Origin: Parcubacteria group bacterium
GTDB lineage: Bacteria; Patescibacteriota; Patescibacteriia; UBA2169
NCBI GenBank assembly: GCA_016181765.1
Contig: JACOYR010000004.1
Coordinates: 115,937-179,936, forward strand
DNA: 64,000 nucleotides
Reading direction: 5' to 3'
Positions 67-62,408 of this stretch are shown piece after piece. Every line of letters begins with the position of its first letter. The first letter of the stretch is position 1. Below the pieces are notes generated by a model, which had not been told where the DNA came from, did not search any database, and saw only the letters and a list, made by a program, of their open reading frames with translations. The translations under genes were made by a program, and so were the position numbers.

Positions 67-102
67 CCCCCTCCTTTACCAAGGAGGGGGTCAGGGGGTG
101 GT
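67..102 (+). repeat. Palindromic GC-rich repeat copy 1 (ccccctcctt-tacc-aaggaggggg-tcagggggtggt)
   Basis: Hairpin plus conserved YNAGGGGGTGG tail; intergenic between dnaJ start and upstream ORF. Confidence 0.7.
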
Positions 103-104
103 CC

Positions 105-407
105 TTATTTCCTGTCCTCAAACCCCAAGCCGGTCTGCGTTTGCGGAGCATCTGCCGCCTTGATCTCACCAAAACGCTCTTCGTACTTTTTGATGTTATC
201 CGCAAGCGCCGCCACAATGCGCTTTAAGTGCCCGGGGCTGGTTTGTACTTTGCTTACGACCTTGCCGGAAAGCCCGGCAACGTTCATGAATACCATCATG
301 AACTCTTCCTGGGTGTGGCTCACCTGCATCATGTTCGCGTACTCACCGCCCGGGATGTTGTCCGCGATTTTAATTTCCTGCCTTTGGGGCTGCTGTTCGT
401 TTGCCAT
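105..407 (-). CDS. Hypothetical small protein (100 aa), AT-richer than surroundings
   Basis: ORF in AT-rich block inserted between dnaK and dnaJ; no recognisable motifs. Confidence 0.4.
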   Translation of the reverse strand: MANEQQPQRQEIKIADNIPGGEYANMMQVSHTQEEFMMVFMNVAGLSGKVVSKVQTSPGHLKRIVAALADNIKKYEERFGEIKAADAPQTQTGLGFEDRK

Positions 408-413
408 ATAATC

Positions 414-1124
414 TTATTTTAATATGATAGTCGGTTCAATGATTTGCTGCATCTCATAACAACCATGCGGTAATCCAGACCCATCATCAAAGCCTGTCCC
501 GCAGGCTGACGCAAAAAGCAAATAATTTCTAGAAACTAACAATGGATACCGAATGCCTCCGGCGAAACACAAATCAAAATCATTTTTAAACTGGTCCATG
601 TTAATATATCCAAGTTTATTTGGAATTGCAGTGACCTTCCAATCTCCCTCTTGTGATTGGCCGTCATAAGCAAAAGAGTATGCCGTACCCATGTCGTTCT
701 CGGTATACGCGGACAATAATTGCTGAAAATACTGCTTGTCTTTTTCTATTCCGCTCTCATTGACGTCTTTTCCAATCGTACATTCAGCGCTGTTCGCCGC
801 AAGTTCGCTCGGTTTCATGGCCTCAAGCACGGCAAAGTTTCCCTCCGACATATCAAAGTTTCTTCCCGCATCCGAATACGCAAAAGCATCTGTAGATTTC
901 TCATTTATTGATGTTTCTTTTGGGTTTAATAGACCAGGGGCTGCTTCTGATTGGCTTGACTGTCTTGGATTAGCTGATTTATTTAAAACAGAACAACCTG
1001 ACACAACAAGCACAACAAAAACCCCGATAAACAAATACAGAAAATATGCATTCATTCGTGGCTTATTTGGTTGTGCTTGTTCGTTTGCCATAATATTTTC
1101 ATTTAGACCATATTGGCTTACCAC
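414..1124 (-). CDS. Putative lipoprotein (signal peptide with LVVSGC lipobox); start probably internal (MANEQ... or MNAYF...)
   Basis: N-terminal hydrophobic stretch followed by Cys lipobox; AT-rich composition. Confidence 0.5.
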   Translation of the reverse strand: MVSQYGLNENIMANEQAQPNKPRMNAYFLYLFIGVFVVLVVSGCSVLNKSANPRQSSQSEAAPGLLNPKETSINEKSTDAFAYSDAGRNFDMSEGNFAVLEAMKPSELAANSAECTIGKDVNESGIEKDKQYFQQLLSAYTENDMGTAYSFAYDGQSQEGDWKVTAIPNKLGYINMDQFKNDFDLCFAGGIRYPLLVSRNYLLFASACGTGFDDGSGLPHGCYEMQQIIEPTIILK

Positions 1125-1545
1125 CAGCGGCCCTTATAAATTGACTAACACCTAGTTGACCTCGTACATTTCGAGCTTTTGACCCTGGCTTTTTCAATTC
1201 TTCTTCAATTTTTGACCTAGAAGCTTTGTAAATATCTGAAACCTGATACCTTTCGTCTAGAAGAACGAGTAAAGTACTGTCCCATTCTTTTGACAAGTCA
1301 ATGCTTCCTAACCGACCACCATTTATTCTTCCGCTAATGATTCTGCGAGTCTTAATCTGAATTTTTTTCTTTCCTTGTGTTGCGTCATACCCATCCTGAC
1401 GGGCAGGAGCTAAACGAAGATTAAGCAAACGACACGCTTCGTATTCACCTATCTCGCCAGTGACGCCAAGCGGACGACCAGTCAAATTATAATATCTCTT
1501 GGCTAACGATTTTATCTGACTAATCAATTTCAGTTTTTGATTCAT
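1099..1545 (-). CDS. Hypothetical protein (148 aa), possibly restriction-endonuclease-like fold
   Basis: ORF with weak D...QIK motif pattern; AT-rich; in inserted block. Confidence 0.35.
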   Translation of the reverse strand: MNQKLKLISQIKSLAKRYYNLTGRPLGVTGEIGEYEACRLLNLRLAPARQDGYDATQGKKKIQIKTRRIISGRINGGRLGSIDLSKEWDSTLLVLLDERYQVSDIYKASRSKIEEELKKPGSKARNVRGQLGVSQFIRAAGGKPIWSK

Positions 1546-1551
1546 ATCCTA

Positions 1552-1586
1552 CCACCCCCTAACCCCCTCCTCATTAGAGGAGGGGG
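1552..1586 (-). repeat. Palindromic GC-rich repeat copy 2, inverted orientation (ccaccccctaa-ccccctcctc-atta-gaggaggggg)
   Basis: Reverse complement matches the family consensus; lies just downstream of dnaK stop, may act as its terminator. Confidence 0.7.
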
Positions 1587-1596
1587 AACCAAGAGA

Positions 1597-3522
1597 TTAC
1601 TTTTTATCATCTTTCTTAACTTCCTCGTACTGGCCTTCCACGGCTTCTGACTGCTTGTCATTTGACGATGAAGCATCGGCTTTCGCGCCGGATGATGATT
1701 TGGCAGCCTCCTCCTGCGCCATCTTGTTCAGGACTTCTCCGATCTTCTGCATCTCTTTGGAGAGCTCCTCGGACGCCTTGTTAATGGCTTCCCTGTCATT
1801 CCCGTCCTGCACTTTCTTCAGAGCATCAATCTTGGCCTGGATGCCTTTTTTGACGTCATCGCCAACTTTGTCGCCTGCATCTTTCAGAGCCTTATCTGCT
1901 GTGTACGCCAACTGCTCCGCAAGGTTGCGCGATTCAATCAGCTCTTTCTTTTTCTTGTCCTCTTCCGCGTGAGTGGCAGCATCCGCCTTCATCTTTTCCA
2001 CTTCCTCCTCGGACAAGGACGTGGTTGCAGTGATGGTGATTTTTTGTTCTTTGCCGCTGGTTTTGTCTTTCGCCTTAACATTCAGGATGCCGTTCGCGTC
2101 AATGTCAAACGTCACCTCAACCTGGGGCATGCCGCGTTGAGCCGGCGGAATGCCGTCCAGAATAAAGCGGCCCAAGGTCTTGTTGTCGCTTGCCATCTGC
2201 CGCTCCCCTTGCAAGACGTGGATTTCCACTGATGTCTGGTTGTCTGCGGCAGTTGAGAAAATCTGGGACTTTGACGTAGGAATGGTGGTGTTGCGATCAA
2301 TCAAGGGCGTGCGCACCCCGCCCAACGTTTCAAGCCCGAGCGTCAGAGGCGTTACATCCAAGAGCAGAACGTCTTTGACATCCCCCTGCAGAACGCCTGC
2401 CTGCACTGCCGCGCCAAGAGCAACCACTTCATCCGGGTTGACTCCGAGATGCGGCTCCTTGCCGAAGTAGGCCTTGACCTTTGCCTGCACCAGAGGCATG
2501 CGCGTCATGCCCCCGACCAAGACCACTTCATTGATGCTGTTCGGAGTCCAGTTCGCATCAGCCATTGCCTGCTTTACCGGGCCAAACGTCTTTTCCACCA
2601 AGCCCCCCACCAGCTCCTCCAGTTTGGCGCGCGAGAGTTGCATCACCAAGTGCTTGGGGCCGTTCGCGTCAGACGTGATGTACGGCTGGTTGATTTCCGT
2701 GGTGGCGGAAGAGGAGAGTTCGTGCTTTGCCTTTTCAGCTGCTTCCTTGATGCGCTGGAGTGCCAATGGATCCTTGGAAAGGTCAACACCTTCGGCCCGT
2801 CCGAACTCATCAACAATCCATTTGATGATGATCTGGTCAAAGTCATCCCCTCCGAGGTGCGTGTCCCCGTTCGTGGCTTTCACTTCCACGGTGTCTGCGG
2901 AAACTTCCAAAAGCGAAATATCAAACGTGCCGCCGCCGAGGTCATAGACCGCGATCTTTTCGTCCTTTTTCTTATCAAACCCATACGCCAAGGCTGCTGC
3001 GGTCGGCTCGTTGATGATGCGCTTGACATCCAAGCCCGCGATCTTGCCCGCGTCCTTGGTTGCCTGGCGCTCGGAGTCGTCAAAGTACGCAGGCACGGTG
3101 ATGACTGCTTCGGTAATTTTTTCTCCCAAACGCGCTTCTGCGTCCGCTTTCAGTTTGCTCAAAATCATTGCCGAGATTTCCTGGGGCGTGTACTCCTTGT
3201 CCGACATTTTGATTTTAACCCCGTCCCCGGACTGCGTGATTTCGTACGGCACCATGCCCCGAGTCTTGGCGACTTCCGCATCCCCAAACCTGCGGCCGAT
3301 GAGGCGCTTGATGGAATACAGCGTATTGCGCGGGTTGGTGACTGCCTGGCGCTTTGCGGACTGCCCAACCAAACGCTCGCCGTTTTTGGCGATGGCAACC
3401 ATGGACGGCGTGGTTCTCGCGCCTTCCGCGTTTTCTATAATCTTCGGCTTGCCGCCCTCCACAATGGCCATTGCCGAGTTGGTGGTGCCGAGGTCTATTC
3501 CGAGAATTTTTCCCATATGCAT
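1597..3522 (-). CDS. dnaK: Molecular chaperone DnaK (Hsp70); probable true start [14 protein letters not shown] at 3516
   Basis: Full-length Hsp70 signature motifs ([30 protein letters not shown]). Confidence 0.97.
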
Positions 3523-3579
3523 ATATGATTAATTGATGTCGTTGCGAGGCGCCGATTCGGCGCCCCGTGGTGAAACCAA

Positions 3580-9386: not shown

Positions 9387-9461
9387 GCCGCTATCGTCTA
9401 ATGGTCAGGACGCCAGGTTCTCATCCTGGCAATCGGGGTTCGATTCCCCGTAGCGGTACCA
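9387..9461 (+). tRNA. tRNA-Glu (anticodon CTC), CCA encoded
   Basis: Cloverleaf: acceptor GCCGCTA/TAGCGGT, anticodon loop TTCTCAT, T-loop GGGGTTCGATTCCCC. Confidence 0.85.
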
Positions 9462-11053: not shown

Positions 11054-11087
11054 CCCCGCCTTACTAAGGAGGGGTTAGGGGAGGTTG
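11054..11087 (+). repeat. Palindromic repeat copy 3 (ccccgcctt-acta-aggagggg-ttaggggagg), supplies SD for dus
   Basis: Family consensus with minor degeneration, immediately upstream of dus ATG. Confidence 0.55.
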
Positions 11088-15729: not shown

Positions 15730-16668
15730 CTACGTTTTTTGTATAATGCGCAGCTTGGCGCTCCGCGAAGGCTTGTTCGCGAGCGCCTCGGCGCGGGTTG
15801 GTTTCTTGACTTTCTTGTTTACCAGGGTGATGGTTGGCGCTTGGGCGCGCGCCGCATCCCTAAAAAAGAATTTCACGATGCGGTCCTCCAGGGAATGGAA
15901 CGATAATACCGCCATGCGCCCGCCCGGAGCGAGCAGCGAAACCAGCTCGGGCAGGGCCCTCTTGAGGTTTTCCAATTCACCGTTGGTAGCTATGCGCAGA
16001 GCCTGGAAAATGCGGGTAGCGGGGTGGATGCGGTACCTACCGCGCCCTCCGGCTCCGCGCACAACTACGTCTGCCAGTTCTCGGGTGGTGTTGATGGGCG
16101 CGCGCTTGCGCGCAGCGGCTATTGCCTGTGCTGCGCGAGCGGCGTGCCGCTCTTCACCATATTCGGTGAATATTCGTTCCAGAGATTTCTCTGGCCAGGT
16201 GTTCACTATCTCGCGCGCGGTTAGCGTCCCCTGGTCAGAAAACCTCATGTCTAGCGGTCCTTCAGTGTTGAAACTAAATCCTCTAGACTCGTCTTTGAGT
16301 TGATCGCGAGATACACCCAGATCCAGTAGTACAGCGCTAACCGGATAAAATCGTTGTTCATACGCAATTCGTTTTGTTTCGGTATAATTTGCTTGTTTGA
16401 AGATGACTCTCTTTGCTTCCCCCTCCTTTGTCCTCAAGGAGGGGGCGAGGGGGTGGTTGTACTTTGCAAGGCGTTTTTGTGAACGCCCGATCGCGTCCTG
16501 GTCCCAGTCAATGGCGAGGAGCCTCCCGTTTGGGGCCGTTGCGTTAAGGATCGCTTCCGCGTGTCCCCCTCCGCCCACGGTTGCATCTATGACAAGCGCT
16601 CCGGGTTTCAAATTAAGCCCATTAACTGCCTCCTCAAGCATGACGGGAATTTGTAGGGATTCACTCAT
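15730..16668 (-). CDS. rsmH: 16S rRNA (cytosine1402-N4)-methyltransferase RsmH, containing an in-frame palindromic-repeat insertion
   Basis: RsmH motifs (DATVGGGGH, LLDLGVS, GFSF); repeat copy 4 at 16419-16457 translates as NHPLAPSLRTKEGEA. Confidence 0.9.
   Translation of the reverse strand: MSESLQIPVMLEEAVNGLNLKPGALVIDATVGGGGHAEAILNATAPNGRLLAIDWDQDAIGRSQKRLAKYNHPLAPSLRTKEGEAKRVIFKQANYTETKRIAYEQRFYPVSAVLLDLGVSRDQLKDESRGFSFNTEGPLDMRFSDQGTLTAREIVNTWPEKSLERIFTEYGEERHAARAAQAIAAARKRAPINTTRELADVVVRGAGGRGRYRIHPATRIFQALRIATNGELENLKRALPELVSLLAPGGRMAVLSFHSLEDRIVKFFFRDAARAQAPTITLVNKKVKKPTRAEALANKPSRSAKLRIIQKT
16419..16457 (+). repeat. Palindromic repeat copy 4, located inside rsmH coding sequence in frame
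   Basis: ccccctcctt-tgtcctc-aaggaggggg-cgagggggtggt matches family consensus. Confidence 0.7.
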
Positions 16669-16817
16669 GGCATTAAAAAGGAGCTCTTACAAAAGCTCCA
16701 CTAAAAAACAATGCAAAACAGTCATGCGAAAAAAAACTGGATGTGTTTTGTTTTTGTTTTTTGGCGTAAAGCCTTTGGGTCATAGCGCGAGCTGCCTCGC
16801 GGTATGATTGAAAGACA

Positions 16818-17246
16818 TTACACTCCGAGCTCTTCCGCGATTTTGGCGGAATCTTTCTCGGTAGCAAGCTTGTACTTTTCCCAAGTCTTGGCATCCCACA
16901 CTTCCAAGCGGTTGTGCAAACCCGCAATGGTGGTGTCTTTTTTGATGCCGGCAAATTTTCTCAAATACTCCGGGATTAAGATGCGGCCCTGGCTGTCCAG
17001 TGACACGTCCATGGCGCCGGCGAGCATAAGGCGGCTGAATGCGCGCGATGTGCCTTGCGAGAGCGGGAGGCCGGAAAGCCTCTCTACAAATTTTTTCCAC
17101 TCATCCGGGGTGTACACGAACAAGCAGTTATCAAGTCCCCTTGTGACGATTGCCCCTTTTTTCAAAGTCTGGCGGAATTTGGCGGGAATTGCCATTCTGC
17201 CTTTCCCATCAATGGAATGTTGGTACTCTCCGATGAACATGGCCAC
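16818..17246 (-). CDS. mraZ: Transcriptional regulator MraZ
   Basis: Tandem MraZ repeats with DxxxR motifs (IDGKGRMAIP, LDSQGRILIP). Confidence 0.9.
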   Translation of the reverse strand: MAMFIGEYQHSIDGKGRMAIPAKFRQTLKKGAIVTRGLDNCLFVYTPDEWKKFVERLSGLPLSQGTSRAFSRLMLAGAMDVSLDSQGRILIPEYLRKFAGIKKDTTIAGLHNRLEVWDAKTWEKYKLATEKDSAKIAEELGV

Positions 17247-17380
17247 TCTTTATCAACAGTTTTGGTGACTTATCCCCACTTCCATCCACCTTTCACCACT
17301 GTGCAGGTATTATACACCACTTTGCATTTCATCACAACCCCCTGCAAGAGGGGTTTTACGCACAACTTATTCACAACAGC

Positions 17381-17456
17381 ATTCCCCCTCCTTGATTTAA
17401 GGAAGGCTTGACTAAACATTCCCCCTCCTTGATAAGGAGGGGGTTAGGGGGTGGTA
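17381..17456 (+). repeat. Palindromic repeat copy 5 with partial tandem duplication, upstream of mraZ
   Basis: cattccccctccttgat occurs twice (17380 and 17418); second unit completes aaggaggggg-ttagggggtggt. Confidence 0.65.
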
Positions 17457-17489
17457 AAAAAAAAGCCAATCCATGTAGGTCTGGATTGG
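17453..17489 (-). terminator. Rho-independent terminator (hairpin gccaatcca...tggattggc followed by T-run on minus strand)
   Basis: 9-bp stem plus poly-T on minus strand, downstream of small membrane protein gene. Confidence 0.5.
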
Positions 17490-17666
17490 CCGTGGTATAT
17501 CTGCAACGGCGGCGCTTGACTTTGTCAAGGTCCACGTTGGTAAGGAGGCGGTAACGCGCCTGCTGCGCCATGGGCCCCGTCCCCTTGCGGGGCTTAGCTA
17601 CGGACGAAGAACAACTGGCTTGTCAGTCCCGCGCCAGCTTCGGTTTGTAGCGGAGTAGATGACTCC

Positions 17667-19413: not shown

Positions 19414-20289
19414 CTACGTCCAGATGTGCATGTTCGCGGGATTGGGCAGGCGCATCACGTCCCGCATGCGGTACACCTTCCCCTCAAAGCCGCCCGCGAC
19501 CGGCCCGGACGAGAGGGGCGAGCAGAACATGATGGCCAAAAGCGCGCCGAGCGCGAAACTCACTGTTGAGTATGCGCGCTGCTCCAGCACGAGCAAATCG
19601 TGCTGGCCTGCGAAATACACCTCATGCTCTCCAGGAAGTCCGCCGAGCCTATGCCCGGTAACCGAGATGTCACTCTCCTTGCGTTCCGCTCCCGGCCGCG
19701 CCCCGTGGCGCTGGATGACGGCTTCGGGATCAAGTCCGCGTCCTCGGGCAATGCTCCGCGCATACATCAGGGCGGTCCCGCTTAAGGGGCCCGCTTTCCG
19801 GTTGTGGTGCTTGTCCGTAACCCCAGCGTCATAGCCCGGAAAAACCTTGGCCCAGACCTCGGCGGTCCAGTCAACAAGCGTAGCTGCGGGGCTGAAGTTC
19901 GGCGCGTCCAGCACCAGCTCTCCGCGCACGGCCATCTCCTTTAGGTACTGCACGGTCGCGGGCGGAAGATCTGTGGAACCCACCACATGCCTTTTGAACC
20001 CGTTCTGAACCGCCTCCTGCATGCGTTTCAAAACTTGGTCGCCCTTTGTGGCATAGAGCACTACGGTTCCGTCCCGGTTGGAGACAAAGGCACTGGACTC
20101 GCGAGCGAGCGACGCGAATGATCCGGCCACTGCTACTCCTCCGAGTTCCTGGCTACGTTGTACGACGCCGCCATTGGGGCTCGTTACCCCGCCGACGAAC
20201 GCGCACGCTTCGGACTCAAGGATAGCACGGCACACGGGTCTGCCCAGCGCCTTCCCGTACGGACCTACCACTATGACCGGGATTTTCAC
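19414..20289 (-). CDS. dapB: 4-hydroxy-tetrahydrodipicolinate reductase (DapB)
   Basis: N-terminal Rossmann motif (IVVGPYGKALGR), HHNRKAGPLSGTA matches DapB HHRHKxDAPSGTA signature. Confidence 0.85.
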   Translation of the reverse strand: MKIPVIVVGPYGKALGRPVCRAILESEACAFVGGVTSPNGGVVQRSQELGGVAVAGSFASLARESSAFVSNRDGTVVLYATKGDQVLKRMQEAVQNGFKRHVVGSTDLPPATVQYLKEMAVRGELVLDAPNFSPAATLVDWTAEVWAKVFPGYDAGVTDKHHNRKAGPLSGTALMYARSIARGRGLDPEAVIQRHGARPGAERKESDISVTGHRLGGLPGEHEVYFAGQHDLLVLEQRAYSTVSFALGALLAIMFCSPLSSGPVAGGFEGKVYRMRDVMRLPNPANMHIWT

Positions 20290-21176
20290 TACTCACCTCC
20301 CTTTCGGGTTGGGGTTATCCTGCGTTGAGGTTGAACAACGTCAGTCACATCATCCTTAAACCCCCCGTGCTCGCGCGGCCAATCGTGGATGGCATTCACA
20401 AGCGTGTCATAGGGATAGATAAACTCTTCACCGCGCCGTGTGCCAGGATCATTGGTGATAAACTGCGTTGGCGTGTACCCGCGGATGATGAGCATGTGGT
20501 ACAGGGGCCCGTCTCCGGTAAAATTTGGGTTCCCGAGCATCCGGCCCGCAGCAGGGATAATGACGAGCTTGTTTGATGAGATGCGGCGCTTGATGTTATC
20601 AACGCTCACATCATCATCCAGCACTGCGGAACCCTTAAAATATTCCTGCCAGATGAACGCCACTTCTGCGGCTGTGGTGTCTTCGTAGTACCCGAACGTA
20701 TTCTGCTCCCAGGCAACCAGTTCTCTGATTGCCTCATCCATTTGTTCCGCGGACAAACTCTCGCCGAAAAAAAATCTATCAGCCATGATAAGGGACGCTT
20801 CTTCGCACGCTTCCTGATAGGGCAATGACCAATCAGCATGCGGAGCTTGGGATTGGAACGGGACCGCAAGGTTGTACTCAACCGGAATTCCCCCTCCTGT
20901 AACTCCGGGGTCCCCAGAAACTGCCGAAGGCATTTCTGGGGTGGAACTGAGGGGGACGGGGGGTGGTGACGCGCCCTCGCTGTCATTGCGAGGAGCCCCG
21001 TCCGGCGCATCATTAAGATTGCTTCGCTCCCCCGCCGAATCGGCGGGTTCGCTCGCAATGACATCAGAGTATGGAACAGCCTCCGGCAAACCAGGCTCTT
21101 GGTTTGCATACCAAATAATTACAGCCCCTATAATGACGATAATTACAAAAATTTTTTTCATAAAAAAGTTATCCAC
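20289..21176 (-). CDS. Membrane-anchored secreted C39-like peptidase domain protein with low-complexity linker containing an in-frame repeat copy
   Basis: N-terminal TM, candidate Cys (EACEEAS) and His (YHMLIIRGY) of C39_2-like fold; repeat at 20890-20968 encodes PPPVPLSS...GGGI. Confidence 0.5.
   Translation of the reverse strand: MDNFFMKKIFVIIVIIGAVIIWYANQEPGLPEAVPYSDVIASEPADSAGERSNLNDAPDGAPRNDSEGASPPPVPLSSTPEMPSAVSGDPGVTGGGIPVEYNLAVPFQSQAPHADWSLPYQEACEEASLIMADRFFFGESLSAEQMDEAIRELVAWEQNTFGYYEDTTAAEVAFIWQEYFKGSAVLDDDVSVDNIKRRISSNKLVIIPAAGRMLGNPNFTGDGPLYHMLIIRGYTPTQFITNDPGTRRGEEFIYPYDTLVNAIHDWPREHGGFKDDVTDVVQPQRRITPTRKGGE
20890..20968 (+). repeat. Palindromic repeat copy 6, expanded by ~50-bp internal insert, inside C39-like peptidase gene
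   Basis: ccccctcct ... gagggggacggggggtggtg flank an inner hairpin ccagaaa..ttctgg. Confidence 0.55.
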
Positions 21177-22169: not shown

Positions 22170-22208
22170 ATTTTGGGTGCAAGCAGTTTTTTCTGCTATA
22201 ATTTAGAT

Positions 22209-23165
22209 ATGCCGAAAATACATAAAAAAAGAAAAACGGTACTGGAACTTTGCGCGGGCGGTGGTGGACAATTTTTAGGATTAGAAGGGGCGGGATTTGA
22301 TTGTGTCGGCGCTGTTGAAATAGAGGAAGAGTATTGCCGAACTCTTACGCACAACCGACCCGGCCTAAACGTTATAAATTACGATTTAAAGCAATTTAAT
22401 GCGAAAAATTTTTTAGGGGTTGATTTAGTCGCAGGCGGGGTTCCCTGTCCTCCATTTTCCATTGCGGGCAAACAGCTAGGACAAAAGGACGATAGAGATT
22501 TATTTCCCTATGCGCTCAAAATAATAGGGCAAGCCGACCCAAAAGCGGTATTGCTTGAAAATGTTCCCGGCCTGGCTTCGGCAAAATTTGCAACCTACAG
22601 AAGAAATATTCAAAAAAAATTAACTGATTTGGGTTATTGGTCTGATTGGAAAATATTAAATGCTTCCGATTTTGGGGTGCCGCAATTGAGGCCTAGATTT
22701 ATATTGGTGGCGGTAAAAAACGGATTAAAAAATTTTTTTGAATGGCCGAGGACTCTCTCAACTAAAGTTACGGTTGGAGAAGCCCTCTTTGATTTAATGT
22801 CAGCCAATGGCTGGACAGGCGCGCATAAGTGGTTGAAAAAAGCAAACAATGTCGGCCCAACCTTAGTGGGAGGTTCAAAAAAACACGGCGGGCCTGATTT
22901 GGGGCCAACACGAGCGCGAGAGCAATGGAAAAATTTGGGAGTTGACGGATTAGGCATTGCCGATTCTGCTCCGGAAATAAAATTTCCACATAACAAACTA
23001 CCAAGGTTGACCGTGCGCATGACTGCCCGTATCCAGGGCTTCCCGGATTCCTGGCATTTTCCGGGGCGAAAAACTTCATCATACAGGCAAATTGGCAACG
23101 CTTTTCCACCCGCAGTCGCCAAAGCAGTTGGGTTTAGAATCATCAAAGCCATCCAAACAACATGA
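22209..23165 (+). CDS. DNA (cytosine-5)-methyltransferase (type II R-M, M subunit)
   Basis: Motif I LELCAGGGG, motif IV GGVPCPPFS, motif VI ENVPGL; AT-rich island. Confidence 0.9.
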   Translation: MPKIHKKRKTVLELCAGGGGQFLGLEGAGFDCVGAVEIEEEYCRTLTHNRPGLNVINYDLKQFNAKNFLGVDLVAGGVPCPPFSIAGKQLGQKDDRDLFPYALKIIGQADPKAVLLENVPGLASAKFATYRRNIQKKLTDLGYWSDWKILNASDFGVPQLRPRFILVAVKNGLKNFFEWPRTLSTKVTVGEALFDLMSANGWTGAHKWLKKANNVGPTLVGGSKKHGGPDLGPTRAREQWKNLGVDGLGIADSAPEIKFPHNKLPRLTVRMTARIQGFPDSWHFPGRKTSSYRQIGNAFPPAVAKAVGFRIIKAIQTT

Positions 23166-23734
23166 AAAGAGACAGGGAGAAAGGATCAAAACAAAAAATT
23201 CTTGATTTCCTTACCGATAATATCGGGAAAGTCGTAAACTCAAAGGAAATTCAAGAGGCTTCTGGCTGGGCCGCTGAATGGGCACGGCGCGTCCGTGAGC
23301 TGCGCGATGAACAGGGGTATCAAATTCTGTCGCACAAAGACCGCGCTGATTTGAAGCCAGGACAGTACATAATGGCCACCAAAAAAAGAAAACCGGCTTT
23401 TGCTCGCGGCATTTCCAAGGAAACAAAAGCTATAGTGTTGGAAAGAAACGGTTTTACCTGTCAAAGCTGCGGCTTAGCAGCAGGCGATCCCGACCCTTTT
23501 CACACTGGCAGGACTATCCGCCTTACTATGGGCCATATTATTGATAAATCAAAAGGCGGTCCAGATTCTCCCGAAAATTTAAAAGCTATGTGTACAAACT
23601 GTAACGAAGGATTACAGAATGCCGCCCTACCAAAACCCAATACAGTCCAGCTTCTGGCGCAGGTCAGAAGAGGCACCATTGAGAGTCAACAAGCCGTTCT
23701 TGATTGGCTTATAAAAAAATACAAAAAGCATTAA
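23162..23734 (+). CDS. HNH endonuclease, probable cognate restriction enzyme (ATGA start/stop overlap with methyltransferase)
   Basis: CxxC...H-N..CxxC HNH motif (CQSCG...GHIIDKSKGG...NLKAMCTNCN) preceded by wHTH-like domain. Confidence 0.75.
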   Translation: MKRDREKGSKQKILDFLTDNIGKVVNSKEIQEASGWAAEWARRVRELRDEQGYQILSHKDRADLKPGQYIMATKKRKPAFARGISKETKAIVLERNGFTCQSCGLAAGDPDPFHTGRTIRLTMGHIIDKSKGGPDSPENLKAMCTNCNEGLQNAALPKPNTVQLLAQVRRGTIESQQAVLDWLIKKYKKH

Positions 23735-23743
23735 CACTAGTAC

Positions 23744-24202
23744 ATGCAAGTTCACAATCCCGATTACTATAACGTTGCGCTCAAAATTATCTTAAAAAAT
23801 AAAAAAGGGAAAATTTTAGTACTCAAAAACGCCGAAGAGACCGGGGAAGGTGATTATTATGATATGCCCGGGGGTAGAATTAACACGGATGAATTTACCA
23901 CTCCATATGAAACACTTATTGACCGAGAATTAAAAGAGGAGATTGGAGGAGATGTAAAATATAAATTATCGCTTGATCCAGTTTCGTTTGGGCGACATGA
24001 ATATTTTTCTGTACGTCAAAAAAAAGAAATCCGCGTATTCTACCTGCTCTTTGAGGCAGAATATATTGCAGGTGTCCCCATAGTATCTCATGAGCACAGC
24101 GGCTATAAATGGTTGCGCCTAGAAAATATTCCATTTGAAAAATACTTTATAAAGGGAATGCTTGAGTCTGTGAAGCGATACGCGGCAAATCAAAAATCTT
24201 GA
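23744..24202 (+). CDS. NUDIX hydrolase
   Basis: Nudix box GGRINTDEFTTPYETLIDRELKEEIG. Confidence 0.85.
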   Translation: MQVHNPDYYNVALKIILKNKKGKILVLKNAEETGEGDYYDMPGGRINTDEFTTPYETLIDRELKEEIGGDVKYKLSLDPVSFGRHEYFSVRQKKEIRVFYLLFEAEYIAGVPIVSHEHSGYKWLRLENIPFEKYFIKGMLESVKRYAANQKS

Positions 24203-28890: not shown

Positions 28891-29072
28891 ATGGCGTGGA
28901 TGAGACAAACTAAAAAATCTGCGGAAATTCCGCAGACGGGGCATAACAGCTGATCAACCGCAATGGGCTCTACCTGCTGCTTGTTCCTCGGCAGGTCATT
29001 GAGCTCCGGAGAGCGCCTGCTGTCTGCGGAAACATAGGTTTAAGGGCATACTACTACAACCCGGGAATGGTG
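28891..29072 (-). promoter_or_regulatory. Possible rplJ leader / L10 autoregulatory structured 5' UTR
   Basis: ~180-nt untranslated leader with hairpins (atctgcggaaattccgcagac) before rplJ; identity not verifiable by eye. Confidence 0.25.
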
Positions 29073-50320: not shown

Positions 50321-51016
50321 TTACTTATCGCTCTCAAGACGCGCCTTTAGCAAAAAAATGGTTTCCGAGCGGAGTTTTGCCCGGGCCCAGTCTTTCTGGC
50401 TCTCAGTCAAAAATTCGCCGAGGCCGTCCAAGATGCTCCGATTGTTCATGCGCTCCAAGAGCTCAATGCACTTCTGCGCCGTTTCCGCGTACGGCATGCC
50501 TGCTCTCTTTTCCACGATCTTTCTGTTAATCGGCCAGTTGTTTTTTGCAAAAAAATACACGTCAAAAACATCCCGGCTCGTTTTGCCGAGGCGCTCGTAC
50601 AAAGCCATGAGCTTATTGGCAAACATATCTTCGGCAACCTGCACCAGCATGGAGATGCCGAGCAGCGTTTTGAGTTCATAACGGGAACCGAATGTCCTGC
50701 GGTTGACCTCAATCTTTATGTTTTGGGCCCTGGCATCGTAGGAAAGAATGATGATTGCGCTGTAGCGCTTGAGCCGCGACTCCCGTATGTCGCCGTAGCC
50801 GCGGGCAATCGTTTCCAGTTTCTCAAATACTTCTTTTTCTTTGCGTTCGTCCAAGAGATCAAAATCAAGATCAACCGAATAACGGTTCAAATGGTAAAAC
50901 AGGAGCGCCGCGGTTCCGCCTTTAAAGCCGAGGTGCGGGGCAATGGCTGTGTCAGTGTATATGTCCTTGAGCATCCGGAGCTGTATGTTTTTGTGTTTTG
51001 AATAATCAAATGCCAT
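50321..51016 (-). CDS. AbiEii/DUF1814-family nucleotidyltransferase, copy 2
   Basis: GFKGGTAALLFYHLNRYSVDLDFD motif. Confidence 0.7.
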   Translation of the reverse strand: MAFDYSKHKNIQLRMLKDIYTDTAIAPHLGFKGGTAALLFYHLNRYSVDLDFDLLDERKEKEVFEKLETIARGYGDIRESRLKRYSAIIILSYDARAQNIKIEVNRRTFGSRYELKTLLGISMLVQVAEDMFANKLMALYERLGKTSRDVFDVYFFAKNNWPINRKIVEKRAGMPYAETAQKCIELLERMNNRSILDGLGEFLTESQKDWARAKLRSETIFLLKARLESDK

Positions 51017-51019
51017 AGG

Positions 51020-51616
51020 TTATGCGGCGCTCTTGCAGTGTTTGAAATATTCGGCAACCTTCTTTGCCATGCTCTTGTTGTTGTAGATGGGCAAAATCTC
51101 AAAAACCCTATCCCAGTCCAAGGGATCCAAATGATCAAAGTGGTACTCTTTGCTTGCATACACCCGGTCTAAAAATGCCCTCTCTTTTTCGGCAATGGCG
51201 TAGCCTGCGGCATGGTCAATGCCGATGGTATTGGACAGCACATAATCTTTCATCCGTATGAATGCGATTTTTTGATCACCCACGCGTATCTCTCTTGAAA
51301 CGTATGACGCGACAAAAATAGTATCGTAATACTGGAACGTAATGCCGACGCGAGCCAAAACAGTCTCAAAGCTGACATACGAGGGCGTGTAGATCCTTGT
51401 CGCCAGTTCAAATGCGTCATACTTTTTATCTTTGGCATACAAGCCGCGGCGCACCCTAACCAGTTTTCCTGCCGCAACGTATTTATTCAACCGCGCGCTG
51501 ATGGCGCTCTCTTTTTCCTCGCCCCACAACAAAGCGGCATCTTTGGTGGAAAAGACGGTCCTGGGTGATCTTAACAAAATCCCCAAGTATTCCCCTTTTT
51601 TAGGTTTTTTATCCAT
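51020..51616 (-). CDS. AbiEi-family antitoxin/transcriptional regulator (wHTH)
   Basis: N-terminal AbiEi_4-like LVRVRRGLYA motif; 4-nt gap to AbiEii. Confidence 0.65.
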   Translation of the reverse strand: MDKKPKKGEYLGILLRSPRTVFSTKDAALLWGEEKESAISARLNKYVAAGKLVRVRRGLYAKDKKYDAFELATRIYTPSYVSFETVLARVGITFQYYDTIFVASYVSREIRVGDQKIAFIRMKDYVLSNTIGIDHAAGYAIAEKERAFLDRVYASKEYHFDHLDPLDWDRVFEILPIYNNKSMAKKVAEYFKHCKSAA

Positions 51617-53334: not shown

Positions 53335-53763
53335 TCAAGAGAGGTGCGTAAGAATCTGCTTCTGAAATTCCTCCAGTTCCCCTATCCGGGTGGTGAGAAT
53401 CTCGTACACCTTTTTCCGGTCAATCGTGCCGTACTCGTGCACCAGAATATTGCGCAGACCCACCATCTTCGTAAGCGCATCCGCCAGAGATTCAGAAATA
53501 ATGCCCTGGCCGCGCAAAAGCGAGACAGCCTCGTAGTTGTCATCCGGGCGCTGTATGCCTTGGTCAATAATCACCAGATGCGCGCTGTCAATGATTGATT
53601 GCGCCGAGAGCTGGAGGTAGCGCTCCGCGTTTCCGAACAAATGAAAATCAGCAAGAAACTGCGCCTCGCTTTTTGCTTCTGACCGGAGCGTCTTGAGGTA
53701 TGATATGTACTCCTTTAAACGTTCCAGTTTTTCAAAAATTTTCTGCCTGCCGAGCTTGGTCAT
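53335..53763 (-). CDS. hepT: HepT-family RNase toxin (DUF86) of type VII TA system
   Basis: RX4HXY motif (LRNILVHEY). Confidence 0.8.
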   Translation of the reverse strand: MTKLGRQKIFEKLERLKEYISYLKTLRSEAKSEAQFLADFHLFGNAERYLQLSAQSIIDSAHLVIIDQGIQRPDDNYEAVSLLRGQGIISESLADALTKMVGLRNILVHEYGTIDRKKVYEILTTRIGELEEFQKQILTHLS

Positions 53764-54170
53764 ACGGATTGCGCCAGGCGGGCGCGGTACTGCGCAAGCA
53801 CCGGCTGGTAATCAAAGTACTCGTTGAGCGCCTTTAATTCAAAATCAATCCGCGCTTCCCGGGACCCCTCAAACGCCACAATACCCTCCCGCATTGCCAC
53901 GTACCGCAAAAACGGCGCAGCCGTATTGAGCACCACCACGTCGGCCTCGCTCCCCAGGGAGCGGGTGAACTGCTCAAGAAGCTCCAGACGGATGTCAAAA
54001 AAACGCGCGCGGAACGCAGGGTCCAGGTACACGGCTAGGTCAACATCACTTCCTTTGCGGCTGCCGCCGGTTGCGGCAGAGCCGAACACATAGCCGAATA
54101 AAACGTCTTTTCGGGCGGCCAGCACCCGTGCCGCGGCATCGGTTATTGTTGCGATATCGCTCTGTTCCAT
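53760..54170 (-). CDS. mntA: MntA-family minimal nucleotidyltransferase antitoxin
   Basis: GSAATGGSRKGSDVDLAV (GSx10DxD) motif; 4-nt overlap with hepT. Confidence 0.8.
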   Translation of the reverse strand: MEQSDIATITDAAARVLAARKDVLFGYVFGSAATGGSRKGSDVDLAVYLDPAFRARFFDIRLELLEQFTRSLGSEADVVVLNTAAPFLRYVAMREGIVAFEGSREARIDFELKALNEYFDYQPVLAQYRARLAQSV

Positions 54171-58669: not shown

Positions 58670-58747
58670 TGGCAGGGAGGGAAGGATTTGAACCTTCATC
58701 CTCTGGCTTTGGAGGCCAGCGCTCTAGCCTTTTTGAGCTACCTCCCT
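58670..58747 (-). tRNA. tRNA-Trp (anticodon CCA), CCA encoded
   Basis: Reverse strand cloverleaf: AGGGAGG acceptor, anticodon loop CTCCAAA, T-loop GAAGGTTCAAATCCTTC. Confidence 0.85.
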
Positions 58748-59147: not shown

Positions 59148-59173
59148 CAAAAAAATCCGTCAGTAAAACGGAT
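59148..59173 (-). terminator. Rho-independent terminator on minus strand (atccgt...acggat plus T7), 160 nt downstream of msrA
   Basis: Hairpin followed by TTTTTTT on minus strand. Confidence 0.5.
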
Positions 59174-59332
59174 TCAAGCCACTTTACCGACTCTGGCTCC
59201 ACCTCATCGGTGGACGACATCAGCTAGGATAAGGTTACGGATCCTGCCGGGTTCGCACTATCGCACGAACCTCCTCACTCTGCCCAACCCCCAGCTCGCG
59301 CCAGGGACAGAGATCAACGGATTTTAGAATTG

Positions 59333-59908
59333 TTAATGTAACCCCAGTATAGCACGCCTGCGGAATTTGTCAAGAGGTCGCAAAAATTTTGCAAACTTCT
59401 CCCGCAGCTTCGCGACTTTGGGGTTGATGATGGCCTGGCAGTATGCCTGGTCCGGATTTTTTTTGAAGTAGTCGTGATGATAATCCTCTGCCTCGTAAAA
59501 CTCACCGAGTGGCTCAACTTCGGTGATGACCGGGCTCTCAAACGTCTTGGCATCCTCAAGCTCGCGGATGAAGCGTTCAATCTCCTGGCGCTGGTCGTCC
59601 CGAGTGTACAGGATGATGGAGCGGTACTGGGTTCCCGCGTCATTCCCTTGCCGATTTAAGGTGGTCGGGTCATGCACACCGAAAAATATGGACAATAAAT
59701 CCTGGAACTTTATTTGGTTTGGGTCGTATTCCACGCGGATCACTTCCGCGTGGCCAGTTGAGCCACTGCAAACTTGATCATAGGTTGGGTTTTTGACGGT
59801 GCCGCCCGCGTATCCTGGGGTGACTGACGTAACGCCGCGGAGCATCTGGAATGTTGCCTCGGTGCACCAGAAGCATCCCCCGCCTAAGATGATAGTTTGT
59901 GTTTGCAT
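59333..59908 (-). CDS. msrA: Peptide methionine sulfoxide reductase MsrA
   Basis: GGGCFWC active-site motif. Confidence 0.95.
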   Translation of the reverse strand: MQTQTIILGGGCFWCTEATFQMLRGVTSVTPGYAGGTVKNPTYDQVCSGSTGHAEVIRVEYDPNQIKFQDLLSIFFGVHDPTTLNRQGNDAGTQYRSIILYTRDDQRQEIERFIRELEDAKTFESPVITEVEPLGEFYEAEDYHHDYFKKNPDQAYCQAIINPKVAKLREKFAKFLRPLDKFRRRAILGLH

Positions 59909-59944
59909 AGAGTGCTTTTTGAACGAGGGATTGTCAAGGTGCTG

Positions 59945-61159
59945 CTACTGGATTTTCTTCTGGCCTGCCATATAGTCCCGCAGGACTTTTGGGATTTCAA
60001 TGGACCCGTCTTTTTGCTGGTAATTTTCCATGATCGCAATCATGGTGCGCCCCAGGGCGCATACCGTGTTGTTGAGGGTATGGACGAATTTTGGCGTGCC
60101 GCCGTCTTTGTACTTGATGTTGAGGCGGCGGGCCTGAAAATCCGTATCATTGCTGCAAGATGCGAGCTCACGGTACGCATTCTGGCCCGGAAACCAGCCC
60201 TCTATATCGTACTTCTTGGCGTTCGGCGCGCCAATGTCGCCGGAGCACATGTTGAGCACGTGGTACGGAATCTTTAGTGATTGCCAGAACTCTTCCGAGA
60301 TGGCGAGCAGGTCCTCGTGCATGTCCCATGACTGGCCTTCTTTACAGAATACGAACATCTCCACTTTATCAAACTGGTGGCCGCGGATAATGCCAGTTGT
60401 GTCCTTGCCATAGGTGCCGGCCTCGCGGCGGAAGCAGGAGGAGAAGCCGAAGTACTTAAGCGGCCCTTCAGAAAGGTCAATGACTTCGTCCGCGTGGTAC
60501 GAGGCAAGCGGCACCTCGGCCGTGCCGATGAGGTACAAATCATCCTCGTCCGCGTTGACCTTGTAGATTTCATTCTTGTCCGCCGGGAAAAATCCGGTGC
60601 CGAACATGGCGGCCTCGCGCACGAGCATGGGGGGCAGTATGGGCGTGAATCCTTTGGCCCGCATGAAGTGAGCGCTGTACTGGATAAGCGCAAACTCAAG
60701 CATGACCAGATCGTTTTTCAAGTACCAGAACCGGGCGCCGGACACTTTGGACGCTCCCAATTCCGCGTGGTCGCGCACTTTAAAATCAAACGTTGGTTTT
60801 TCGCCCCATGTTTTGACTTCCTGGTTGCCGGTTTCATCTGTGCCGACTGGAACAGACTCGTGCGTGATGTTCGGAAGCTGGATCAAGAGCTCGCGCAATG
60901 ATGATTCAACAGGTGCGAGCTTCTGCTCCAAAATTTTCACGGCATCGCCGAGCGCCTTTAACTTCTTGATTTCTCCGGGCGAGGGTTTTGACTTGGAGCC
61001 TGCTTTGAGCGCGGCGCGCTTCTCGTCAATCTCGGTGATAATGCTGCGCCGCTCGGCGTCCAATTTCAAAATTTCATCCACTGATGCGGCGCATTTGCGG
61101 ATTTTGTTGTTTGCTTTGACTTTGTCCGGGTGCTCCCGGATAAATTGCATGTCCAGCAT
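59945..61159 (-). CDS. serS: Seryl-tRNA synthetase (start at MLDMQF)
   Basis: N-terminal coiled coil and class II motifs 1-3. Confidence 0.95.
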   Translation of the reverse strand: MLDMQFIREHPDKVKANNKIRKCAASVDEILKLDAERRSIITEIDEKRAALKAGSKSKPSPGEIKKLKALGDAVKILEQKLAPVESSLRELLIQLPNITHESVPVGTDETGNQEVKTWGEKPTFDFKVRDHAELGASKVSGARFWYLKNDLVMLEFALIQYSAHFMRAKGFTPILPPMLVREAAMFGTGFFPADKNEIYKVNADEDDLYLIGTAEVPLASYHADEVIDLSEGPLKYFGFSSCFRREAGTYGKDTTGIIRGHQFDKVEMFVFCKEGQSWDMHEDLLAISEEFWQSLKIPYHVLNMCSGDIGAPNAKKYDIEGWFPGQNAYRELASCSNDTDFQARRLNIKYKDGGTPKFVHTLNNTVCALGRTMIAIMENYQQKDGSIEIPKVLRDYMAGQKKIQ

Positions 61160-61160
61160 A

Positions 61161-62408
61161 CTATATATTTGAAACCAGCTCTGTTTCTTTTGCGCCGCGC
61201 TTTTTGGCTTCAATCTTGCCTTTGGTCTTGGGGCTTATGACGAGCCGGGTTGGAATGCCGATTAAATCCGCATCTGCGAACTTTTCCGCGTTGGACGCTT
61301 CACGCCTATCATCCCATAACACTTCTTTTCCGCCCGCGGCCAGCGACTCGTACACTTTTTCGGACTGCTGGTATACTGCATCATCATCGCCCAAGCTAAC
61401 CAGGTGATAAGCAAAAGGCGCAACTTCCTCGGGCCAGATGATGCCATGCTCGTCATGGTGCACTTCCACGATCGCGCCCATTAAACGGGAGATGCCGATG
61501 CCATAGCAGCCGATGATGACCTCTTTTGATTTCCCGCTTTCATCCGTAAACTTGAGGCCGAAATCTTTGGAAAACTTGGTTCCCAAATCAAAGATATTTC
61601 CGACTTCAATAGTCTTGAGCTCTTTGACGGGTGTGCCGCAGTCAGGGCACGCCACCCCCCCTTTCTTCCCCCCCTTACCAAGGGGGGGATTGAGGGGTGG
61701 TAGATTTGCGATTTCCTTATTTTGCGCAAACCCGCAATCGCACGCAAAAATCACATCTTCCCCGTTCTCGGTTGCAACCTGGAACTCGTGCGAGTACTCT
61801 TTGGTGAATGACCCGCCCGATGCCTCGGTGATGATCGCGTCCAAGCCGCAGCGCTTGAAAACTTTTGCGTACGCGCCTTTCGCCTTTTCGTAGTATAGCT
61901 TGAGATCTTCGGCAGACGCGTGGAAGCTGTACAAATCTTTCATCAAAAATTCGCGGCCGCGCAGCAACCCGGCTTTGGCGCGCAGCTCATCCCTGAACTT
62001 GGTCTGAATCTGGTACCAGGCCCGCGGCAAATCGCGGTAGGAATTAATGTGCTTTTTGGCCAAAGGCACAATCACCTCTTCGTGGGTCGGGCCCAGGGCG
62101 TACTCGGATCCCGCGCGCGAGGGAACTTTGAACAGCACGTCCATGCTGTCCCATCGCCCGGTCTTCTGCCAGTTCTCTTTGGGGTGCAGGGCGGGCAGGG
62201 AAACTTCCTGCCCGTTGATTGCATCCATCTCCTCGCGCACAATAGCGCTGATATTTTCCAGAACCCGGACGCCTAATGGCAGGTATGAATACACGCCCGC
62301 CATCAACTGGTCAACAAACCCGGCGCGCACTAAAAAATTGTGGTTTGCGCTCTGCGCGCTCCCCTCGCCGGTTTTGCTTGTTTTGCTGAAGAGAAGCGAC
62401 TGCCGCAT
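61161..62408 (-). CDS. proS: Prolyl-tRNA synthetase, minimal form lacking editing insertion, with in-frame palindromic-repeat insertion between two Cys pairs
   Basis: ProRS class II motifs (MRQSLLFSKT, FRDE, SFH); repeat copy 7 encodes LPPLNPPLGKGGKKGGV. Confidence 0.9.
   Translation of the reverse strand: MRQSLLFSKTSKTGEGSAQSANHNFLVRAGFVDQLMAGVYSYLPLGVRVLENISAIVREEMDAINGQEVSLPALHPKENWQKTGRWDSMDVLFKVPSRAGSEYALGPTHEEVIVPLAKKHINSYRDLPRAWYQIQTKFRDELRAKAGLLRGREFLMKDLYSFHASAEDLKLYYEKAKGAYAKVFKRCGLDAIITEASGGSFTKEYSHEFQVATENGEDVIFACDCGFAQNKEIANLPPLNPPLGKGGKKGGVACPDCGTPVKELKTIEVGNIFDLGTKFSKDFGLKFTDESGKSKEVIIGCYGIGISRLMGAIVEVHHDEHGIIWPEEVAPFAYHLVSLGDDDAVYQQSEKVYESLAAGGKEVLWDDRREASNAEKFADADLIGIPTRLVISPKTKGKIEAKKRGAKETELVSNI
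61654..61703 (+). repeat. Palindromic repeat copy 7 inside proS coding sequence
   Basis: cccccccttaccaaggggggg-attgaggggtggtag, family consensus with C/G-homopolymer stem. Confidence 0.65.

Follow-up and report, generated by a model that had tools for sequence, protein, structure and literature searches.

A dispersed insertion family with the predicted design of class II intrastrand triplex motifs in a Parcubacteria genome segment

Results

Copies of the repeat and their host genes

A 64,000-nucleotide stretch of contig JACOYR010000004.1 from a Parcubacteria group bacterium, here called the window in its whole length, carries seven copies of a short GC-rich repeat. The consensus reads T-CCCCCTCCTT, a first loop of 3-7 nt, AAGGAGGGGG, a second loop NNA and GGGGGTGGT(T), so that a pyrimidine arm, a purine arm and a third, G-rich arm follow each other in a unit of 34-42 nt. 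The length of loop 1 is 3-4 nt in all but two copies, the exceptions being copy 4 with 7 nt and copy 6 with 48 nt. The two hairpin arms pair perfectly over 9-10 bp in copies 1, 2, 4, 5 and 7, with one mismatch in copy 3, and are degenerate in copy 6; the hairpin, which is the only part that was modelled, was supported by ViennaRNA with DNA parameters at -7 to -21 kcal/mol. All seven loci had been proposed as one palindromic family in an original prediction made from the letters alone, and each was found at, or a few bases from, the place named there. A Shine-Dalgarno (SD)-like AAGGAGG, which had been claimed for every copy, is missing from copies 6 and 7.

Four copies lie between genes. Copy 1 (64..102, +) consists of TTT, the pyrimidine arm CCCCCTCCTT (67-76), loop 1 (77-80), the purine arm AAGGAGGGGG (81-90), loop 2 (91-93, TCA) and the third-strand arm GGGGGTGGT (94-102), and is situated between a DUF3467 gene (105-407, -) and the start of dnaJ (ATG 60-58, -). 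Copy 2 (1551..1586, -) is inverted and reads CCCCCTCCTC taat GAGGAGGGGG tta GGGGGTGGT on the minus strand, followed by aggat-ATG; it precedes a DUF6998 open reading frame (ORF; 1099-1545, -) and lies 10 nt downstream of the dnaK stop (1597). Copy 3 (11054..11086, +) is a 4-G variant, CCCCGCCTT act AAGGAGGGG tta GGGGAGGTT, with four Gs in each of its three arms, and it lies within a 48-nt insert between the stop of a 525-aa ORF (11043) and the dus ATG (11092). Copy 5 (17421..17455, +), CCCCCTCCTT gat AAGGAGGGGG tta GGGGGTGGT, sits upstream of the mraZ promoter and operator, and its strand written as a 37-mer is TTCCCCCTCCTTGATAAGGAGGGGGTTAGGGGGTGGT. The tandem arrangement once suggested for 17381-17456 dissolved on inspection: 17384..17406 (+) is a partial, decayed copy, CCCCCTCCTT gattt AAGGAAGG, with a left arm, a decayed right arm and no third arm, which shares the 17-nt stretch CATTCCCCCTCCTTGAT with copy 5, 37 nt downstream.

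The other three copies lie inside conserved genes, as the original prediction had it for part of the family, and are read in frame on the minus strand. Copy 4 (16419..16458, +), CCCCCTCCTT tgtcctc AAGGAGGGGG cga GGGGGTGGTT, is translated as NHPLAPSLRTKEGE within rsmH (15730..16668, -). Copy 6 (20890..20968, +) has the pyrimidine arm CCCCCTCCTG, its long loop with a nested hairpin (CCCCAGAAA..GCCGAAGGC..TTTCTGGGG), a degenerate purine arm GAGGGGGA and the third arm GGGGGGTGGTG; a Peptidase_C39_2 family protein (gene 20289..21176, -) owes to it 28 extra residues in its N-terminal linker. Copy 7 (61653..61701, +) is a two-sided AAGGGGGGG variant, CACCCCCCCTT tctt CCCCCCCTT acc AAGGGGGGG attga GGGGTGGT, with a third-strand box on either side and the triplet code (see below) obeyed on both strands. 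Its translation, NLPPLNPPLGKGGKKGG, falls between two CxxC pairs encoded by proS (61161..62408, -; the ORF extends to 62444). The start of proS is likely M13 of this ORF (P0121 is 100% identical), and the encoded prolyl-tRNA synthetase (ProRS) is also 100% identical to HYT31_03390, a protein encoded on a 281-kb contig in a metagenome-assembled genome (MAG) of a Parcubacteria group bacterium.

Two side observations concern these host regions. The nested hairpin in the loop of copy 6 (20913-20942) is a small GCC-GAA-GGC hairpin, which also occurs in loop 2 of elements from three unrelated genomes (L050, L105 and L115); its C-GAA-G core belongs to a type known for extraordinarily stable DNA mini-hairpins. 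ProRS (61161-62444, -) is of a short bacterial type of ~415 aa that lacks the INS editing domain, and a CxxC...CxxC pair replaces this domain at its position in the window protein and in related sequences of the candidate phyla radiation (CPR).

A family beyond chance

With up to one mismatch allowed, CCCCCTCCTT was found 16 times in the window against 5.0 +/- 2.0 in its dinucleotide shuffles, and AGGGGGTGGT 14 times against 3.3 +/- 1.7; no shuffle reached either count, which corresponds to a three- to four-fold over-representation of both 10-mers. The remaining one-mismatch matches are isolated purine runs and not copies. A covariance model was replaced by a three-part scanner (pyrimidine arm, purine arm and mirror third arm, all obeying the triplet code), as MAFFT misregistered the left arm over the variable loops and a third strand cannot be encoded in such a model. 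The scanner recovered the short-loop copies 1, 2, 3, 4, 5 and 7, and gave 0, 2, 0, 0, 0, 0, 0, 0, 0 and 0 hits in ten Markov-shuffled windows. From the 10-mer enrichment and the scanner controls, the repeats are a dispersed family, as had been proposed, and not chance low complexity. Rfam gave no match at the copies with the gathering threshold over the whole window, and none at E<=1 over 16350-17520. When the literature was searched for the sequences as plain strings, all matches were unrelated ones to eukaryotic sequences and primers.

The third arm mirrors the purine arm

The G-rich box 3' of the hairpin had been noticed before and is indeed present; it had been taken for an appendix, and it is in fact the purine arm written backwards with A replaced by T. 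Reversal of AAGGAGGGGG gives GGGGGAGGAA, and the observed box is GGGGGTGGT(T). As the box mirrors the purine arm in this way, it follows the code of an antiparallel purine-motif triple helix (G*G-C, T*A-T, A*A-T), in which the third strand joins the hairpin through a 3-nt turn, loop 2. In the window copies, 1-2 of 10-11 triplets are imperfect.

For a wider comparison, one genome per species was scanned for AGGAGGGGGNNAGGGGGTGG, giving at least 120 loci with 135 matches among those listed; taxon labels of MAGs were taken as deposited. The left arm (T)CCCCCTCCT with a short loop, which was not part of the search pattern, was strictly matched in 110 of these 135 and could be discerned by eye in most of the other 25. 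Loop 2 was NNA, with TTA as the commonest form (36/133 copies). Among 116 unselected purine-armed hairpins in the listed loci, 52 were accompanied by a mirror box with at least 90% match, against five with a direct repeat, and for non-standard arms none of 2000 permutations of the arm-box pairings attained the observed mirror score. The position of the T in the box follows that of the A in the arm, as in GGGGGAGGA then GGTGGGGG, AGGGGAGGG then GGGTGGGGT and AGGGGAGGGGG then GGGGGTGGGGT; further pairs are GAGGGAGGGG then GGGGAGGGAG and AAGGGGGAGA then AGAGGGGGTT.

A prediction was then fixed beforehand, and metagenomes were scanned for a hairpin of reverse polarity alone, TCCTCCCCC-N3-6-GGGGGAGGA. 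A GG[T/A]GGGGG mirror box stood within 4 nt on one side of 81 of the 127 hairpins, typically as TTA-AGGTGGGGGTGA, whereas the direct order GGGGG[T/A]GG was seen in none of the 127. The mirror test, the permutations and the metagenome prediction together show that the fold-back third strand is conserved and covaries with the arm. As a side result, many metagenome loci (L152-L271) proved to hold a sister family of reverse polarity, TCCTCCCCC-loop-GGGGGAGGA-TTA-AGGTGGGGGTGA. It is widespread, and several of its copies have the flank AAGTTTTTTAGAGAAT in common (e.g. L152, L174, L218, L222 and L234).

Four classes of intrastrand triplex motifs have been defined, of which class II is the commonest in 5246 prokaryotic genomes (Holder, 2015; NAR 43:10126; PMC4666352). 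A pyrimidine arm complementary to a purine arm over 6-15 nt with at most one mismatch, an antiparallel 3' reverse-Hoogsteen mirror arm and short loops of 1-6 nt define this class, and all of them are found in the repeats. Judged by this design, the repeats are predicted to be class II intrastrand triplex motifs, made up of a pyrimidine arm, a purine arm and a 3' reverse-Hoogsteen arm.

Copies are insertions relative to empty sites

When orthologous loci were compared, the copies proved to be genuine insertions, polymorphic at rsmH, proS, the C39 peptidase gene and dus. The rsmH gene has 14 extra codons in the window and in an 85%-identical orthologue (P0001/L123), which are missing in five orthologues of 78-81% identity, and the DNA alignment shows a clean 42-nt gap in the orthologues without copy 4. 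Aligned to Thermus RsmH (1wg8), the insert falls on a gapped, variable turn. A target-site duplication was not established at rsmH, where a possible CAA repeat is within the alignment ambiguity at ~17% divergence. In a side observation, the RsmH protein P0004 (L124/L125) has no insert at the window position and a separate 7-aa insertion, RSPGGAC, near its C-terminus (columns 278-284 of alignment A2).

The proS insert of 36 nt, or 12 codons, is lacking in a 90%-identical orthologue (L272). In an 84%-identical one (L273) a copy is found at the same place in opposite orientation, beside a native G-run (AGGGCAGGGGATG in L272), so that the site may be either a hotspot or an old insertion with precise loss. 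The 28-aa insert of the C39-like peptidase lies in the linker after the signal or transmembrane segment and is absent in L121. Upstream of dus, the preceding stop overlaps the ATG in L124 (TTTAATG) and lies 3 nt before it in L121; the window has 48 nt more, with copy 3. The whole syntenic 21-kb locus of L121, with a GC content of 45.5%, holds no copy. L124 and L125 encode an identical RsmH protein, yet differ by a copy directly after murE.

The rsmH genes of the window and L123 have 82.8% DNA identity, and 72% at third codon positions. Copy 4 itself is identical in 38/39 nt (P ~0.006), with the sole change in loop 1. As the element is so much closer than its host gene, the arms are either selected for their fold or homogenised by conversion from other copies.

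The nearest genomes are GCA_016177305.1 (Parcubacteria NC_groundwater_98; L019, L272), with 90% ProRS identity, and a MAG of Candidatus Komeilibacteria (L089), whose dnaK has 75% nucleotide identity; L089 has four copies in both orientations in its 430-bp dnaK-DUF3467 spacer. The corresponding part of the window (414-1545, -), between dnaK and DUF3467-dnaJ, is a low-GC (45%) segment with a 236-aa ORF without Pfam match and the DUF6998 ORF; it is flanked by copies 1 and 2 in inverted orientation, and the L089 spacer there is different and shorter.

Copies in and around genes

In all three in-frame copies of the window the C-rich strand is present in the mRNA and encodes a Pro/Gly-rich peptide, namely NHPLAPSLRTKEGE, NLPPLNPPLGKGGKKGG and SPPPVPL...GGG. 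Eight further in-frame cases, in both orientations, were found in Pfam-verified genes of other taxa, with at least 60 codons required on either side of the element: Fmt (Parcubacteria, L019), RNase R (L029), trigger factor (L047), UvrD (L048), RarA/MgsA (Magasanikbacteria, L053), AlaRS (Fimbriimonadaceae, L064), a metallo-beta-lactamase-fold protein (L112) and a methyltransferase (L014). Of 133 copies, 116 on the G strand and 122 on the C strand leave two or all three reading frames open. A looser coding test, in which a long stop-to-stop ORF spanning the element was sufficient, was discarded, as it was passed by 52% of elements and 81% of random positions and gave false positives at gene starts.

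From their position, copies 2 and 3 appear to supply the ribosome-binding site of the next gene. Copy 2 offers GGGGGTGGT-aggat-ATG to the DUF6998 ORF, and copy 3 offers GGGGAGGTT-gtacg-ATG to dus, with GGAGG of the third arm ~6 nt before the ATG, whereas the native AAGGAGG of dus is now ~55 nt upstream owing to the insert. The same is probably true of copy 1 and dnaJ. On the dnaJ mRNA, AAGGAGGGGG is separated from the ATG by 7 nt and forms the 3' arm of a hairpin of -21 kcal/mol, which starts 25 nt past the upstream stop, while the complement of the third arm begins 2 nt past this stop; opening of the hairpin would presumably need translational coupling.

No orientation bias was detected for the standard family (61:67 relative to local GC skew, 60:65 relative to the coding strand) or for the reverse-polarity family (40:45 and 35:47, respectively), and the 6:1 orientation seen in the window is therefore not meaningful.

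Distribution, phage carriage and composite forms

The element was also looked for outside the source genome, as had been suggested, and recurs widely across other bacteria: by record titles, the standard variant occupies at least 120 loci in ~13 phyla. Listed carriers are Acidobacteriota, Gamma-, Alpha- and 'Delta'-proteobacteria including Geobacter, Bacteroidota including Ignavibacteria, Armatimonadota, Planctomycetota, Chloroflexota, Cyanobacteriota (Crocosphaera), Clostridia, Acidimicrobiia, Zixibacteria, Bdellovibrionales and several CPR lineages, and among them are the isolates Rudanella paleaurantiibacter and Altererythrobacter sp. C41 as well as a complete Phycisphaerales chromosome.

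A viral collection gave 27 matches, six with the full element. A 24.7-kb viral contig encoding a tail fibre, an internal virion protein and an endolysin carries three inverted dimers, and as full elements are present on a phage contig, phages are a possible vehicle between hosts. As a control on these matches, 17 of the 27 represent one conserved prophage sequence without left arm that is unrelated to the family: the stretch CAACTAATTTCCTGAAAGGAAGCG-AGGAGGGGGTAAGGGGGTGG-AGTCGTTGG has no pyrimidine arm and is identical in 17 prophage-like contigs from isolate genomes (IMG/VR loci L127-L132, L135, L138, L140, L142, L143 and L146-L151).

Inverted dimers are seen at L072 and L139/L145. L061 and the Clostridia MAGs L051 and L016 hold very dense clusters of a short-armed form, CCCCCTCC-nnn-GGAGGGGG-nTA-GGGGGTGG, with a dozen or more copies per 8 kb and many inverted pairs ~30 nt apart. 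Longer repeats with conserved flanks around the triplex core, e.g. CCGTAAT(A/T)CGAGCG...AGTG and CAAGTAGCTGATTTTATT, were observed at L005, L011, L065, L106 and L114 (Proteobacteria F1-80-MAGs165) and at L002, L009, L062 and L088 (Thiotrichales BB31), which suggests larger composite elements built on the core.

Other features of the window

The region upstream of mraZ (17266-17335, -) contains an extended -10 promoter (TGGTGTATAAT; TATAAT 17314-17309), after which the direct repeats GTGGT, GTGGA and GTGGG follow at an exact 10-nt spacing (17299-17275), the arrangement expected of an MraZ operator. Three further low-GC islands consist of restriction-modification and toxin-antitoxin genes; they encode a C5 cytosine DNA methylase together with an HNH endonuclease and a NUDIX protein (22173-24202, +), an AbiEii/AbiEi toxin-antitoxin pair (50321-51616, -) and a HepT/MNT (nucleotidyltransferase) pair (53335-54170, -). 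Rfam and ARAGORN gave a ribosomal protein L10 leader (28901-29047, -), tRNA-Glu(CTC) (9387-9461, +) and tRNA-Trp(CCA) (58670-58747, -).

Discussion

Comparison with known repeats

The closest known counterpart is TMECO of Escherichia coli, a repeat named BoxC in the 1990s and PIT element in 2000 (Hoyne/Maher), with the pattern CCCTCNCCC-N3-6-GGGNGAGGG-N3-GGGNGAGGG, TTA or CCG as second loop and 23 copies in MG1655 that are 'always located intergenically' (PMC4666352). TMECO has no strand bias, occurs at times in inverted pairs, has no associated transposase, was linked to locus variability between strains and showed neither promoter nor terminator activity in E. coli (PMC4666352). The window family is like it in the order of domains (pyrimidine arm, loop of 3-6 nt, purine arm, 3-nt loop that is often TTA, G/T mirror arm), in its 9-10 nt arms and total of ~37 nt, and in being multi-copy and dispersed in both orientations without bias, with occasional inverted dimers, no transposase among the window ORFs scanned and loci that vary among close relatives; its loop 2, NNA and mostly TTA, resembles TMECO type A. 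The arms themselves differ, being CCCCCTCCTT/AAGGAGGGGG/GGGGGTGGT instead of CCCTCNCCC/GGGNGAGGG/GGGNGAGGG, and the purine arm of the window family is a canonical Shine-Dalgarno sequence. Unlike the intergenic TMECO, three of the seven window copies lie in frame in genes, as do copies in other phyla; the window has ~1 copy per 9 kb, compared with 23 copies in the 4.6 Mb of MG1655. Its host belongs to the CPR, and copies are also found on a phage contig. No TMECO-type copy was detected in the window by the three-part scanner, and the family does not match the TMECO sequence pattern. PIT elements of E. coli are reportedly the subject of Hoyne et al. 2000.

A resemblance to Rickettsia palindromic elements (RPE) and to REP repeats had been proposed; features of both are shared, but the repeats are judged to be neither. 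RPEs, reportedly introduced by Ogata et al. in 2000, are said to be ~100-150 bp long and inserted in frame in protein genes. Both they and the window repeats are palindromic, lie in frame in protein genes including housekeeping ones and add a peptide without destroying the protein; unlike the RPEs, which are Rickettsia-specific and have no triplex design, the repeats have 34-42 nt and are spread over many phyla, and the two appear unrelated in sequence, though no direct search for RPE sequences was made. Like REP, BIME and REPIN elements, they are short, non-autonomous GC-rich hairpins that are present in many copies and often paired in inverted orientation, but they differ by the lack of GTAG, by the absence of a RAYT among the window ORFs scanned, by the mirror third arm, by insertions in coding sequence and by sequence shared across phyla. 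As in H-DNA, the base triplets are G*G-C, T*A-T and A*A-T and a mirror repeat is required, whereas H-DNA arises within supercoiled duplex, from a single long mirror repeat; in the repeats a single strand gives all three arms, and folding would need the single-stranded state. Taken together, the earlier interpretation of the repeats is partly supported.

How the family may persist

We consider it probable that the repeats are a selfish class II triplex module, whose insertions are tolerated in a streamlined CPR genome, since it is pre-adapted by SD-like arms and open frames. In the G-rich single strand, CCCCCTCCTT would pair with AAGGAGGGGG, and after the 3-nt turn GGGGGTGGT would fold back antiparallel on the purine arm. 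The T of the third arm opposite A fits the purine motif of the G strand, the complement has A where a pyrimidine motif needs T, and purine-motif triplexes reportedly do not form in RNA (PMC4666352), so the fold should matter in single-stranded DNA. The element would then be a non-autonomous, essentially selfish DNA module of ~34-42 nt that may be copied at the DNA level via the folded single strand, either by template switching in replication or repair or by a single-strand DNA enzyme acting in trans. Between tightly packed genes the SD-like purine and third arms of a copy could replace the displaced ribosome-binding site, and within genes the open frames and Pro/Gly-rich loop peptides would let in-frame copies be tolerated in loops and linkers of essential proteins, while homogenisation, or selection for the fold, would act on the copies. 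In their flanks the seven copies have only T/TT in common; they lack terminal inverted repeats and show no clear target duplication, and neither a transposase nor a RAYT was among the 19 window ORFs scanned against Pfam.

A bolder version, which we regard as unlikely, holds that the repeats form a pan-bacterial, phage-borne mobile class that is defined by its fold, copied by host replication and repair without a dedicated transposase and actively maintained in its arms within coding sequence.

Alternative explanations

Could the element serve translation, as a module that provides or regulates ribosome binding, in which an anti-SD mimic sequesters the SD sequence in a hairpin until translational coupling or temperature opens it? 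A GGAGG-like sequence 5-7 nt before the ATG in copies 2 and 3, and probably 1, agrees with this, as do the native AAGGAGG that copy 3 displaced by ~55 nt so that its third arm is now at SD distance, the dnaJ SD sequence within the 3' arm of the -21 kcal/mol hairpin and the L125 copy 6 nt before an ATG. Yet three of the seven window copies lie within coding sequence and one upstream of a promoter, and across 133 copies start codons are not enriched after the element. Bacteroidota, which make little use of SD sequences, contain it as well. A role for the mirror third arm is not provided, and purine-motif triplexes were reported absent in RNA (PMC4666352), which leaves us to regard this module as rather improbable. 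A REP/REPIN-type origin, with the hairpin as substrate of a RAYT (IS200/IS605-like Y1 transposase) elsewhere in the genome, is in our judgement very unlikely. It would account for a short GC-rich hairpin repeat that is intergenic in many genomes, for inverted dimers resembling REPINs and BIMEs and for the longer conserved flanks in some genomes (e.g. Thiotrichales BB31 and Proteobacteria F1-80), but the copies have no conserved 5' GTAG, the 19 window ORFs scanned against Pfam include no transposase, REPs are species-specific whereas the arms recur across phyla, the TMECO authors likewise saw no transposase association (PMC4666352), and a mirror third arm is not predicted.

The stable GC stems of 9-10 bp, the location of copy 2 only 10 nt past the end of dnaK and the stop codons that adjoin copies in L089 and L125 would be compatible with transcription terminators or 3' hairpins stabilizing mRNA. 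Instead of a U-tract, every hairpin is followed by NNA-GGGGGTGG, copies are found within ORFs and upstream of starts and in both orientations without strand bias relative to coding, and PIT elements had neither terminator nor promoter activity in E. coli (PMC4666352). We therefore give this explanation hardly any credence, in agreement with the original prediction, which had set the repeats apart from ordinary terminators. Least credible to us is a G-quadruplex formed by the two G-rich boxes with an incidental C arm: the purine and third arms do hold several GG/GGGGG tracts, but only two of these tracts are long, the complementary C arm is almost always present and would compete, and the mirror placement of A/T in the two boxes would not be required, yet is observed.

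Several points weigh against the preferred reading of the repeats as a selfish triplex module. The source genome was covered by the 64-kb window only. Neither a mobilizing enzyme nor a copying mechanism was found there, the boundaries show no target duplication, and 'mobile' refers to presence and absence at orthologous sites only. Near-identical arms recur across phyla, which may be due to transfer or convergence, and their conservation in rsmH could reflect a cellular function instead of selfishness. Start codons 3-13 nt after an element are not enriched (10/266 sides of 133 elements, compared to 7.2% at random positions), and the supply of ribosome-binding sites is a local and not a general property. 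As an isolated single strand TMECO forms a stable triplex in vitro, but none was detected in vivo by dimethyl sulfate footprinting (PMC4666352).

Significance

The structural class has already been published, so the finding is not categorically new. Intrastrand triplex repeats of E. coli have been known since the 1990s, with no established function or spreading mechanism, and were called strictly intergenic. New here are the variant with SD-like arms and how densely it populates a CPR genome, the insertions documented here, some of them in frame within essential genes of several phyla (rsmH and proS in the window; alaS, fmt, rnr and rarA elsewhere), the phage contig and the covariation evidence. 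The mirror covariation in particular is comparative evidence for selection on a triple-helical fold in nature that is independent of biophysics. The high density of the family is found in an ultra-small CPR genome, which has little DNA to spare. It also matters for annotation: assemblies are broken by such repeats, spurious ORFs result from them, and CPR proteins gain loop insertions that look 'unexplained'. If the bolder version were true, fold-defined modules would colonize essential genes in frame and rewire ribosome-binding sites.

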